DNA of 6,841 nt from a virus. A model generated the notes under the pieces. The model ran no database searches. It had not been told where the DNA came from and was given only the letters and a program-made list of their open reading frames with translations. Of the stretch, positions 1,668 through 5,978 are shown piece by piece. Positions within the stretch are counted from its first letter, which is position 1, and each line of letters starts with the position of its first letter. A program made the translations under genes and the position numbers. The DNA lies in IMG/VR virus record IMGVR_UViG_3300011982_000005, positions 1 to 6,841 of that record. One strand, 5' to 3'.

Positions 1668-1800
1668 AAAATATTAAAATATAAAGTTTGATTTCGCAAA
1701 TATAAACAATTAAATATAATAAGTAATATGATAATCAAATTTTTTAAGGTATTTTAATAAAATCGATGTTTTAATATGTTTGGAGCCCTGTCAGTTTTAC
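1668..1800 (-). promoter_or_regulatory. Very AT-rich upstream region of the peptidase-Rep-capsid gene string; candidate promoter with a Bacteroidota-type -7 box
   Basis: My hand count gives about 18 percent GC over 1671-1790. The minus strand reads TATATTTG (plus 1697-1704), matching the Bacteroides -7 consensus TAnnTTTG, 29 nt upstream of the peptidase ATG. No well-spaced -33 TTTG was found. TTTTAATA occurs twice (1752-1759 and 1769-1776), flanking an ATCGAT palindrome. A (TA)n run lies at 1801-1809. Confidence 0.35.
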
Positions 1801-2017
1801 TATATATATCAAGGGGGAAAGTACGCAGCACGGAGGGCGTGCGCCACTTACGTGGAAACTGAAAAGTAAATAATTTTAAGCTTTTAGGGGGGTCGTATCG
1901 CAAGCTTCACTATCCGCCAAAGGCGAGAAAAATAGGTATGCATTTCGAGTGCGTTCCGTTTCCTGTAAGCGGAAACTACACGCCCGACCGGCTTTGTGTT
2001 CGCAAGCTCACCTAATA
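1801..2017 (-). other. GC-rich, hairpin-dense non-coding block of unknown function (candidate complementary-strand origin, ssDNA initiation signal or structured RNA)
   Basis: Hand count gives 100 G+C in 200 nt (1811-2010), against very AT-rich flanks. Stem-loops (plus coordinates): 1828-1842 (GCACG/CGTGC); 1844-1855 (CCAC/GTGG, with GUAA loop on the minus strand); 1878-1907 (AAGCTT/AAGCTT); 1915-1925 (CGCC/GGCG); 1951-1983 (GCGT+GTTTCC / GGAAAC+ACGC); 1978-1999 (ACAC+GCC / GGC+GTGT). Repeated 9-mers: TCGCAAGCT at 1898-1906 and 2000-2008, and GYGGAAACT at 1852-1860 and 1969-1977. Confidence 0.6.
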
Positions 2018-2050
2018 GCAAACAAAAATAGCGCAGCCGAAGCTACGCTA
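2018..2050 (-). terminator. Rho-independent terminator closing the minus-strand gene string
   Basis: The minus strand reads UAGCGUAGC-UUCG-GCUGCGCUA, a 9-bp stem with one G.U pair and a cUUCGg tetraloop (plus 2029-2050). It is followed directly by UUUUUGUUUG (plus 2019-2028). The stem contains the TAG stop of the 40-aa ORF. Confidence 0.75.
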
Positions 2051-2174: not shown

Positions 2175-2264
2175 TTAGTTAGTAACACCTAAAGCGGTAG
2201 CAAGTGCAGTCAATGCCGATACGGCAATCTGGAGCACTAACTTCCATACATTTTGTTTTTTCAT
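2175..2264 (-). CDS. Small single-pass membrane protein, 29 aa (not in the ORF track); holin-like candidate
   Basis: Hand translation from ATG 2264-2262 to TAA 2177-2175 gives MKKQNVWKLVLQIAVSALTALATALGVTN. A basic N-terminus precedes one Ala/Leu/Thr-rich TM helix. It starts 32 nt downstream of the VP2 stop on the same strand. Confidence 0.55.
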   Translation of the reverse strand: MKKQNVWKLVLQIAVSALTALATALGVTN

Positions 2265-2296
2265 AATAATAACGAATTAAATTAATTAATATTATA

Positions 2297-3899: not shown

Positions 3900-5978
3900 T
3901 TAAACACGTGGCATACCAGATACGGACATATCGCTAATATACTGAACAGAGAAACGAGAAGAAATACGGAAAGGGTCGGTTTTTTCTGTACCATCATAAT
4001 TGACTTCTACAACTTCATTCGTTACAGCAGGGTCGACAAACAAAAAGTTTGTCGGTACACCTTTGTACTCCATAGTCGAAGTAGAAACAGCAAACGAACT
4101 ACCTGCACGATATGCACGCAAGTTCAAACCAAGTTCAGCGTTAAAATAAGTAGGACGATGAACGCTTAACACCTGCATACTACGACCAGTCTTAAACTCT
4201 CCGTGGATATAATCTGCACCAGACTTAAATTCATGGTAACGAGGTTGCCAACCATAAACTTTATTAACATCAAACAACTGATTAGTACTACCAAGCGCCT
4301 GACCAACACTCAAAGGGCCTGAATGATTACCAAACATTTTACCATAAACGTTGGCAACCTCATTTTTATGTTCAAGAAAATACTTCTGCATTTGACCAGT
4401 CAAATCAGGCAAACGATACGATGAAAACTTAATCCAAGGAGGCAACAAACGAGAAAACTCGATTGGCTGCATGCCAAGGTCTTCTGTTTCAGGTACAAAA
4501 TAGTCTTCACGAGCAAACTTGACATTGAAAGCGTCGATACCATCTGCATCATAAAGAGTAGCAGGAGAAAACCAAGAAAGGCACATCAATACACCATGTT
4601 CACGTGCATCAAAATTAACGTGCCCACTCTGACCAGAATCAATGTAACTGCCTTGCTGTCCAAAATTTGTTGAACTATCATCAGTGCGACCATCAGAAGT
4701 CGCAATAACTGGACTAACCTCGAGGGCTTTTTGGAAACCACCAACGTAAATACTTTGTATCAAATCATCAGCAACATCTACACCATAATGAGCCATCATT
4801 TGGCCTTTATAAGTCTTAGGCGCACGGCTTGTTATTTGAGCCATCTTATCAAGGGCCATCAAATTACGAAGAGAAGCAGCAGAGATTGTAACATCAGAAG
4901 AATTTAAAGGACGCTGTAAAACGTCATTAGCTTCAAAGAAAGCACGATTATTACCAACAAATGTTTTAATAGTTGATGAAACATCATCAACAAACAAAGG
5001 TGATGGATGGATATTACTCAACAAATCCTTACTATACTTAACGTAACGAGGTGAAAAAAAATCAAGAGCGCGATCCGCACATTCCTTGGTAGGCTTAAAA
5101 TCGAACAGAAACTTCTGCGAAGACTTATCAAACAAATCATCGACATTATACGCAAGCGGATTCACATTCTCATAGTTTGTATCTAAGAAATGGTCTTGAT
5201 AGATCTTCTGATAAGCAAGCCAATAAAACATATTAGCTTCATAATTCATCATGTCAGAAGTAACAGAATTAACGTTGATATTTTCACCAATAAAAGGCAT
5301 AGCACCATATTTCATCATATCCGATAAACGAATATAAGAATATAAGATATTATAACCGAAAATATCAGTCATACCTGGAGAAGTAGCAAGTATTTCGCCG
5401 AAAGGTTTTTTTAAATCTGTAGGTTCAAACTTTTTAGTAGGAACATTATTAACAGCAGAAGCACGAATACCACCAAACGTGCCACCTTGGTGAAATTCAT
5501 TAGTAACACTACTACTACCGGAAGAACTGGAAGCAGAACCAGCAAAAGAAACATAATCAAAACGTTGACCGTCAGCATCCGAGATGCCTGCAAAACGCGC
5601 AAAAACTTGATAAGGCTTGAAACTAGGAGCGCGCATCTTAGAACCTTGCTTAAAATTATAAGCAAGCAAACTACTTGAAGTAGTATTCTTAGGATTAACA
5701 CCAGAGAACAGAGCCTTTGAACTACTACACATCAAACGAGCAGGAACAAAATAAAAAGCAAAATTCTGCTTCATACCAAGGAACGGCCGGCCTTGCAACG
5801 TCTGTGCCTGAACGATACTCGTAGTATCAATACTCACATGATCATGAGGATTTAAAAACATCTGAAACACGGGTAACAACATGCCTGCTGGCTGTGTGTA
5901 CAAATGGGTTTCGCTCCTATCGAAACCATTACGAGGCCGTTTGGCTGGGCCAACGTCAATTTTTGGAACTTTAGACAT
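3900..5978 (-). CDS. VP1: Major capsid protein (Microviridae F/VP1 family)
   Basis: 692 aa. The N-terminus RPRNGFDRSETHLYTQPAGMLLPVFQMFLNPHDHVSID follows the F-protein pattern (N.FDLS....T...G.L.P.....LPGD-like). FAFYFVPARLM and the C-terminal GWQPRYHEFKSGADYIHGEF also fit the family. The size fits the large-capsid (Alpavirinae-like) microviruses. Confidence 0.93.
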   Translation of the reverse strand: MSKVPKIDVGPAKRPRNGFDRSETHLYTQPAGMLLPVFQMFLNPHDHVSIDTTSIVQAQTLQGRPFLGMKQNFAFYFVPARLMCSSSKALFSGVNPKNTTSSSLLAYNFKQGSKMRAPSFKPYQVFARFAGISDADGQRFDYVSFAGSASSSSGSSSVTNEFHQGGTFGGIRASAVNNVPTKKFEPTDLKKPFGEILATSPGMTDIFGYNILYSYIRLSDMMKYGAMPFIGENINVNSVTSDMMNYEANMFYWLAYQKIYQDHFLDTNYENVNPLAYNVDDLFDKSSQKFLFDFKPTKECADRALDFFSPRYVKYSKDLLSNIHPSPLFVDDVSSTIKTFVGNNRAFFEANDVLQRPLNSSDVTISAASLRNLMALDKMAQITSRAPKTYKGQMMAHYGVDVADDLIQSIYVGGFQKALEVSPVIATSDGRTDDSSTNFGQQGSYIDSGQSGHVNFDAREHGVLMCLSWFSPATLYDADGIDAFNVKFAREDYFVPETEDLGMQPIEFSRLLPPWIKFSSYRLPDLTGQMQKYFLEHKNEVANVYGKMFGNHSGPLSVGQALGSTNQLFDVNKVYGWQPRYHEFKSGADYIHGEFKTGRSMQVLSVHRPTYFNAELGLNLRAYRAGSSFAVSTSTMEYKGVPTNFLFVDPAVTNEVVEVNYDGTEKTDPFRISSRFSVQYISDMSVSGMPRV

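Follow-up and report, generated by a model that had tools for sequence, protein, structure and literature searches.

The 6,841-nucleotide (nt) virus record IMGVR_UViG_3300011982_000005 (all of it hereafter the window) is a circular microvirus genome with a terminal repeat of 99 nt, 95.8% identical to Microvirus D_HF4_111 from human saliva, and carries every gene on its minus strand. On this sense strand, a structured, geneless block follows the capsid operon. With a confidence just above even, we regard this block as the region acting in cis in the replication of a temperate microvirus from oral Prevotella/Segatella, and as lying where sense transcription should not cross, from a terminator to the next promoter. 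The block comprises a four-way junction at 1789-1862, predicted to be the (+)-strand origin nicked by the phage Rep protein, and a hairpin cassette at 1880-2015 (module A), for which a role as complementary-strand (single-strand) origin stands at about an even chance; our confidence in the first assignment is considerably higher than in the second. The initial annotation had set the limits of the block at 1801-2017 and had favoured a single-stranded DNA (ssDNA) initiation signal and/or the Rep nicking origin. This hypothesis is still the favoured one and now divides between the two elements, while the limits had to be moved, the functional unit reaching 1789.

Microviruses are among the commonest phages in human microbiomes. 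To our knowledge, almost nothing is known about where either of their DNA strands is started outside phiX174 and G4, and we know of no single-strand origin described in Bacteroidota. The analysis provides a concrete (+) origin with a predicted nick position for Bacteroidota microviruses, plus a candidate (-) origin. Both proposed functions, double-strand origin and single-strand origin, are of kinds already known; what appears to be new is the architecture of the four-way junction, the family of cassettes and the occurrence of this family in both microviruses and Prevotella plasmids. In the published literature we found no account of the junction, of the nick motif in microviruses other than phiX174 or of the cassettes; intergenic hairpins in other small microviruses have merely been predicted (PMC9865509).

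A conserved non-coding region upstream of the M15-Rep operon

The sense gene order is major capsid protein, hypothetical protein, pilot protein, two small open reading frames (ORFs), terminator, ~360 nt without genes, peptidase M15, a small ORF and Rep. The gene-free stretch, 1668-2028, is bounded by the intrinsic terminator (2050-2029) and the M15 gene (Table 1). The jump in GC content that had first marked the block is real, with values of 0.475 in 1801-2017 and 0.515 in 1880-2015 against 0.174 in the flank (1668-1788) and 0.367 genome-wide. That the block is non-coding also holds: its short ORFs (1754-1903, 1884-2021 and 1949-2131; 45-60 amino acids) change frame or meet stops in relatives that are 86-98% identical. 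The block DNA is kept in D_HF5_96, in which the neighbouring small ORFs are unrecognisable. In a distant BLAST search of the block against phages, only three microvirus records were matched (D_HF4_111, D_HF5_96 and a capybara microvirus), and a search of the window for tRNA and tmRNA genes returned none.

Relatives were found by pattern scans of IMG/VR, one metagenome scan, contigs encoding M15 homologues and a Rep-profile scan of species genomes. Of 60 matches in the metagenome scan seven were real, most of the others arising by chance from variable gaps. The resulting comparative set contains ~25 related circular genomes and proviruses (loci are given L numbers), and their alignment splits the region into separate parts. 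The flanking host proteins of integrated relatives share 90%-identity clusters with Segatella (Prevotella) oulorum, S. salivae and S. oris. The expectation of an exceptionally stable fold was not borne out. Relative to dinucleotide-shuffled sequence, the 254-nt region gave z = -0.34 as sense RNA and about -1.3 as sense DNA or antisense RNA, values for the block and module A together ranged from -0.06 to -1.34, and only the origin folded as DNA stood apart (z = -2.26). As folding energy is unexceptional, the case for structure rests on sequence comparison, and the covariation sought among homologous regions was found, in the helices of the origin and in P1 and P2 of the cassette.

Table 1. Positions of features in and around the proposed replication region of the window (caret, predicted cut).
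Feature	Position	Strand	Remarks
Peptidase M15 gene	1667-1233	-	
Bacteroidota-type -7 box, sense TATATTTG, M15-Rep operon	1697..1704	-	conserved in all relatives upstream of the M15 ATG
dif-like attachment site (attP), sense GATTATCATAT-TACTTA-TTATATTTAAT, 28-mer	1709..1736	-	provirus junctions; outside the block
Putative (+)-strand origin, four-way junction	1789..1862	-	covariation across relatives
Origin P1 arms	1856-1862 + 1789-1795	-	covarying
Origin hairpin 1 (hp1)	1844-1855	-	covarying
Origin hairpin 2 (hp2), conserved loop CGCCCTCCGTGC	1824-1843	-	covarying
Origin P4 arms	1820-1823 + 1796-1799	-	covarying
Junction loop carrying CCCCCTTG^ATATATAT	1800..1819	-	core CTTGATAT at 1806-1813
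AT-rich spacer between cassette and origin	1863..1879	-	GC 0.06
Module A hairpin cassette, ~136 nt, folded in the sense (packaged) strand	1880..2015	-	proposed complementary-strand origin
Cassette 3' boundary motif ACGACCCCCCTAAAAGC	1880..1894	-	common to cassettes A, B, B', D and the plasmid copies
Cassette P4, GUGA-AGCUUGCGA-UAC	1895-1910	-	weaker support, ambiguous alignment
Cassette P3, CUAU..CGCC-UUU-GGCG..AUAG	1910-1935	-	inner stem variants CGCC/GGCG, GCGU/ACGC, UCAC/GUGA by eye; weaker support, ambiguous alignment
Cassette P2, long hairpin: 4-bp basal stem, 3x3 purine internal loop, 6-bp apical stem, loop GCUUACA	1951..1983	-	predicted in every lineage
Cassette P1, mini-hairpin GGUGA-[GC-UU-GC]-GAAC with tandem G.A pairs	1998..2011	-	one copy of the 9-mer noted initially
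Intrinsic terminator of the capsid/pilot/small-ORF operon	2029..2050	-	9-bp stem, UUCG loop, T-run

A four-way junction presenting a phiX174-like nick motif

In all relatives the origin consists of the same elements in the same order: TCAGTTT, hairpin 1, hairpin 2 with the loop CGCCYYCCGTGC, TAC(T), a pyrimidine run, CTTGAYATATAT, AGTA and AAACTGA. The outer arms pair together and TACT pairs with AGTA, giving a four-way junction. Among 20 sequences, 98.1% of the cells hold standard pairs and 13 of the 19 pairs change on both sides, which none of 500 shuffles matched, while slid controls were 32-41% paired. With 30 sequences, including distant proviruses, 96.3% of the cells are paired and 15 of the 19 pairs covary. 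All four helices covary, and the architecture is kept in L078 and L081 with nearly all of the helix sequence different. G.U cells are rare (~6 of 545), which fits a constraint at the level of DNA or of a cruciform. The minimum-energy DNA fold recovers the junction except for a shifted hp2 stem.

Several local hairpins had been described in the block, and this part of the initial annotation stood for hp1, hp2 and the cassette hairpin P2, all of which covary, while a further hairpin at 1978-1999 is not conserved. The GNRA loop ascribed to hp1 did not survive comparison, since relatives have GTCA, TTAA, AACT, ATAT, ATTA or TTCA at this place. With a covariance model of the origin (R1), the same junction was detected in proviruses of P. 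histicola, P. multiformis, Muribaculum and a Bacteroidaceae metagenome-assembled genome (MAG), whose Rep proteins are just 25-33% identical. There it lies 5.2-5.8 kb beyond (downstream of) the Rep start, at the end of the provirus. It is present in gut and vaginal microviruses too.

Helices P1 and P4 close the large loop, which carries CCCCCTTGATAT and displays CCCCCTTG^ATAT, so that a nick motif is held in a loop as in stem-loop rolling-circle origins. The 8-nt core CTTGATAT, which is single-copy in the window, and the preceding C-run are identical to the phiX174 sequence at the annotated rep_origin (CCCCCAACTTG^ATATTAAT), the phiX174 record placing the viral-strand origin at the A after CCCCCAACTTG. 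By this correspondence the predicted cut on the minus strand separates 1810 from 1809. The 20 closest relatives all retain the motif Y-T-Y-G-A-Y-A, which some of the distant proviruses match more loosely. The full 30-nt phiX174 origin, with its AT-rich spacer and recognition sequence, was not found in the window: the first ~13 nt align, and the 3' part reads ATATAGTAAAACTGACAG versus TAATAACACTATAGACCAC. A Rep gene is present, with PF23343 (REP_ORF2-G2P) assigned in the near-identical L079. We therefore propose CCCCCTTG^ATAT as the nick site of the phage Rep. This HUH enzyme has two tyrosines and is related to protein A of phiX174; by nicking there it would start and end rolling-circle synthesis of the viral strand.

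The viral-strand origin of phiX174, nicked by the gene A protein (CAACTTG^ATATTAATAAC), is comparable in virus family, in the two-tyrosine Rep superfamily, in the 8-nt core following a C-run and in its location on the coding-sense strand. In phiX174, however, the site falls within gene A and no need for a hairpin is described for it, whereas the window has its site in intergenic DNA, in the loop of a conserved four-way junction to which two additional hairpins belong; the downstream portion of the phiX174 origin is not kept here. The stem-loop origins of rolling-circle plasmids and CRESS-DNA viruses (those with a circular ssDNA genome that encodes a Rep) likewise display a nick motif in a loop, with an inverted repeat closing it. 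A plain version of this kind occurs in L003 and L108 (one a capybara microvirus, the other a microvirus contig assigned to a Limnohabitans MAG by binning) as a 14-bp hairpin with the loop CACCTTGATATA or CCCTTGATA. In the lineage of the window the same stem is interrupted by two inserted hairpins, and in this and in its Rep family (PF23343) it differs from the plasmid and CRESS-DNA origins.

The 12-nt C-rich loop of hp2 (CGCCCTCCGTGC) is near-invariant although the hp2 stem differs at three of four pairs, and a related 10-nt C-rich loop is found in L078 and L081; this loop is a candidate site for protein recognition, in particular for the binding of Rep. Two distant proviruses have repeats at the origin. 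In L102 (Prevotella histicola chromosome, 15278-15397), about four tandem copies of CCAATATCAA expand the origin loop directly after the CTTGAC nick motif. In L103 (Muribaculum MAG, 15733-15890), three tandem repeats of ~52 nt lie downstream of the origin, each ending in AACATTAGCAAAATGACAGC, a copy of the origin 3' arm; these could be repeated termination sites or partial origins.

Module A, a hairpin cassette beside the origin

Module A sits between the capsid-operon terminator and the origin, 17 nt from the latter and on the strand that bears the nick motif. It is kept in L001, L044, L073, L079, L007, L043, L048, L002, L078 and L093. The mini-hairpin P1 shows covariation of a U-A to a C-G pair and of an inner G-C to an A-U pair, and is replaced by plain 5-bp hairpins in L069 and L063. 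In the long hairpin P2, five of the eight counted pairs have double-sided changes and all cells are paired. Taken together, 12 pairs of P1 and P2 are paired in 98.6% of the cells, seven of them with double-sided changes, and none of 500 shuffles reached this covariation score. At the 3' boundary, CCUAA can pair with UUAGG at the 5' end (2011-2015), which would close the domain; this helix is predicted by folding. The motif ACGACCCC-TAAAAG is conserved as well. Because some G.U pairs fall on the sense strand, at positions where the antisense would be mismatched, and the nick motif is on the sense strand too, the cassette folds in the packaged strand.

Two different 9-mers had been reported to recur in the block. 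TCGCAAGCT does occur twice and marks a sub-motif, in sense GTGAG-NN-TGCGAAC, which was found once each in 10 of 126 fetched loci, confined to cassettes and in the sense orientation only. The GYGGAAACT repeat is lost in relatives. The proposed switch between mutually exclusive hairpins also fell away, the hairpin at 1978-1999 having no counterpart in L007 or L002. A long-range helix between the two copies of AGCUUGCGA would be possible in RNA but was rejected, as L002 and L073 do not keep it. In IMG/VR, module A was found in microviruses only; four further matches were chance matches in GC-rich coding sequence.

Shorter GC-rich blocks follow terminators ~100-200 nt upstream of the origin in two distant Prevotella proviruses, L106 and L102. 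They contain CCGTTAGGCGC...GACCCC..TAAATAC, which is reminiscent of the two ends of module A (5', GTTAGGTG; 3', GACCCCCCTAAAAG), and they may represent a minimal cassette core.

Unrelated cassettes occupy the same position

The decisive observation for the cassette is its modularity. Within each of the pairs L002/L012 and L007/L009, the sequences to either side of the cassette are near-identical, yet the cassettes themselves are unrelated, A in one member and B in the other. The boundaries of this swap are exact, extending from the T-run of the terminator to the motif GCGAAAACG-RCCCYCTAWAAG. At least five cassette types (A, A', B, C and D) occur at this one position, together with a longer composite in L083, and a terminator-type hairpin with T-run, differing in sequence, precedes the cassette in all relatives. 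Exchange is also seen among proviruses at one host locus, where L079 has A and L096 and L097 have B'. Many other microviruses, of human, pig and rodent origin, also have module B, and in all of them it follows the pilot gene. Modules A and B share the 3' boundary motif and the GTGAG-NN-TGCGAAC sub-motif. The composite of L083 (4290-5070) comprises a second terminator, an additional ORF of 52 amino acids and a cassette of type D, with a further ~270 nt of GC-rich hairpins before the origin; this region appears to accumulate structured inserts.

Module B in small Prevotella plasmids

Homologues of module B (~150 nt, full-length, 74-87% identical over the aligned parts) are present in seven small Prevotella plasmids, six of which were examined (L117-L122: NZ_CP072337, CP072376, CP118017, CP072353, CP072391 and CP072332). 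These six contain toxin-antitoxin and mob genes, with a Rep_3 initiator wherever rep was checked, and neither microvirus genes nor a microvirus origin were found in them. In five plasmids, module B is on the strand opposite to that of a MOBV-like mob gene and ~190-230 nt upstream of it, with inverted repeats resembling a transfer origin (oriT) in between; in the P. veroralis plasmid, of which part was retrieved, no mob gene was identified. The relaxases are mutually homologous (38% protein identity between L117 and L119), and the motifs HNKR and H-DE...H-H, read from the alignment, are of MOBV type. Module B covaries across its phage and plasmid copies. No plasmid match was found for cassettes A', C and D, and no cassette showed sequence similarity to any plasmid outside Prevotella.

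MOB-suite typed L117-L122 as "non-mobilizable" despite the MOBV-like relaxase, which is annotated just as a hypothetical protein in L117 and is missing from the gene table of L118. Upstream of the plasmid relaxase gene, an inverted repeat with a T(T)GGG loop resembles an oriT.

Two short motifs in module B were considered and set aside. A CS-6-like TAGCGA (in ATAGCGA) becomes ACAGCG together with its 5' partner, hence it is paired and gives no loop signal. The resemblance of GTGCGCCCT to the nick core of MOBQ relaxases is probably a coincidence: GTGCGC is one arm of a covarying helix, being GGACGC/GCGUCC in L009, and the plasmid relaxase is MOBV-like.

A possible single-strand origin

A microvirus genome and a mobilised plasmid both arrive in the cell in the form of circular ssDNA, whose conversion to double-stranded DNA (dsDNA) depends on host enzymes, so a cassette common to the two fits a single-strand origin (sso, or single-strand initiation signal, ssi). 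In the mechanism we propose, the module A domain would stay folded in the entering ssDNA genome and recruit host RNA polymerase or primase, which would then lay the primer for complementary-strand synthesis. We put the chances of this interpretation at about one half. A cassette shared by phages and mobilizable Prevotella plasmids would imply a shared, host-dictated solution to the conversion of ssDNA to dsDNA, and DNA exchange between phages and plasmids. If this is true, the cassette family would be the first candidate single-strand origin of Bacteroidota and a useful part for Prevotella and Bacteroides vectors.

The cassettes resemble the known sso types (ssoA, ssoU, ssoT and ssoW) in being non-coding, hairpin-rich and strand-specific, with unrelated types in related replicons. 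By definition, an sso is structured, depends on its orientation and has activity in single-stranded form only (PMC4595007, PMC5714925), and in pMV158 ssoU and ssoA flank the oriT-mobM cassette (PMC5737340). Module B has the same layout as ssoU-oriT-mobM of pMV158, next to oriT-like repeats and a MOBV relaxase gene. In position, too, the cassettes correspond to an sso: module A lies beside the leading-strand origin on the packaged strand, and module B beside the oriT-like repeats, on an assumed plasmid strand. They differ from known sso in that their hosts are Bacteroidota, whose RNA polymerase recognises other promoter elements, and in that the module B plasmids encode a Rep_3 initiator (theta-type) and are not rolling-circle plasmids; the likeness to known types is one of layout and general character. 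In phiX174 (primosome assembly site), G4 (primase site) and f1/M13, the complementary-strand origins are likewise intergenic hairpin clusters in the packaged strand, and in f1/M13 the (-) origin is directly beside the (+) origin. Signals of the phiX and G4 types occur on plasmids too (PMC5714925, PMC4595007). Differences from these are the lack of sequence similarity, the block having matched only the three microvirus records named above in the BLAST search against phages, and the modular, horizontally exchanged nature of the cassettes.

Several observations weigh against the assignment as a single-strand origin. Module A is known from only about five independent lineages, its folding energies are no better than those of shuffled sequence (z -0.06 to -0.82), and P3, P4 and the invariant closing helix are without covariation support. 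Module A had no match in plasmids, nor did a strict pattern of it match in 185,579 species genomes; its equivalence to module B rests on position, common boundary motifs and the common sub-motif, and the identity of the transferred plasmid strand is assumed. Module A showed neither of the ssoA hallmarks, RSB and a terminal loop with the CS-6 sequence TAGCGT/A, and TAGCG is absent from it. Finally, folding in the sense strand fits RNA as well as ssDNA, and long invariant unpaired stretches such as CUCGAAAUGCAUACCUAU are typical of functional RNAs too.

Alternative explanations

The main alternative, which we find unlikely, is that the cassette is a gene for a structured non-coding RNA (ncRNA), made by read-through of the terminator or from an unrecognised promoter and acting in trans in regulation, sequestration of a host factor or anti-defence. 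The sense-strand fold with some G.U pairs, a multi-helix domain with a terminal closing helix, the invariant unpaired stretches, tandem G.A and GNRA-like loops in the cassette and its presence on two kinds of mobile element all agree with such an RNA. However, the cassette is located directly 3' of a strong conserved terminator and no terminator follows it. Upstream of it no Bacteroidota -7 box (consensus TAnnTTTG) is conserved, in phages or plasmids; the match TAttTTTG at 2022-2029, pointed out as a possible promoter of an ncRNA or 5' leader, is the tail of the terminator (TATTTTTG) and is not conserved. No Rfam 15 covariance model matched in the block at E<=10 in a scan of the window, and at E<=1 nothing relevant was found in six relatives with other cassette types or in the phage and plasmid copies of module B. 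The absence of a conserved promoter, the position between terminator and promoter and the lack of an Rfam match argue against an RNA product, and the structured RNA or leader suggested initially thus fares worse than a replication signal. Moreover, unrelated cassettes are interchangeable beside the origin, which a generic cis function explains better, and the plasmid cassette tracks oriT and mob.

A bolder and rather doubtful interpretation takes cassettes A, A', B, C and D as an undescribed superfamily of mobile self-folding elements (~135-200 nt) that are traded between ssDNA phages and mobilizable Bacteroidales plasmids. In place of simple priming, they would serve as structured RNAs or as aptamers made of ssDNA, which could capture a host factor or blunt a host defence as foreign ssDNA enters the cell.

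It is improbable that the cassette is an accessory part of a strand-transfer origin, either as an enhancer for Rep or as part of a plasmid oriT that lets microvirus DNA be mobilised by conjugation. The cassette does adjoin the phage nick-site structure and the plasmid mob gene, and module B does contain the MOBQ-like motif mentioned above. A Rep-specific enhancer is, however, difficult to reconcile with one origin sequence being combined with unrelated cassettes, and with the same cassette in plasmids without microvirus Rep or origin. As for a part of oriT, a separate, typical inverted-repeat region lies between the plasmid mob gene and the cassette, and both the covarying helix around GTGCGC and the MOBV-type relaxase motifs speak against it.

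Two further explanations are contradicted by the data and have only the slightest probability. The integration of relatives in Segatella chromosomes and the GC-richness of the block relative to its flank might suggest an attachment or Xer recombination site or host-derived DNA, but the provirus junctions lie at a dif-like 28-mer (1709-1736) with the block inside the provirus, and a strict module A pattern had no match in the species genomes searched. Equally negligible, chance hairpins in a GC-rich spacer, for which the z-scores would speak, conflict with covariation far above shuffled and slid controls and with conservation of the block where the neighbouring small ORFs are not conserved, and a small protein encoded by the 45-60-amino-acid ORFs conflicts with their frameshifts and interruptions in close relatives.

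Attachment site and neighbouring features

A Xer-type attachment site had been among the initial suggestions; such a site is real in this genome, but at 1709-1736, outside the block. It is inside this 28-mer that integrated copies (L073, L079, L081, L093, L096 and others) and circular genomes part, and the site is present in attL as well as attR; in L073 the junctions are at 4650-4680 and 11330-11365. The whole block is internal to the provirus, at its right end. The integrated relatives have no integrase gene, their flanks are like those of Segatella oulorum, S. salivae and S. oris, and the host-side arm AATTTATCATAAT was seen in three host contexts. The junction mapping agrees with the dif-like att sites of Bacteroidetes microvirus proviruses (Krupovic & Forterre 2011, PMC3091885), which likewise have no integrase and a 28-bp dif-like site duplicated at both junctions; the counterpart in the window is this element neighbouring the block, not the block itself. 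In the circular genome L007 (IMG/VR 2600254994_000001), a doubled att region (GATTATCATATTATGATAAATGCGATTTATCATAATACTTATTATAT) lies ~90-150 nt downstream of the origin, with an attL-like junction that includes host-side sequence, which suggests imprecise or alternative Xer excision.

The -7 box TATATTTG stays with the M15-Rep operon in the proviruses. On the other side of the block, the pilot gene is followed by two short ORFs with hydrophobic products (2043-2165 and 2179-2272, minus strand), which in D_HF5_96 are replaced by unrelated small ORFs. The products may be accessory proteins of the membrane or of lysis; L096 has two equivalent short ORFs, the 29-amino-acid one of which matches PF20096 (DUF6486).

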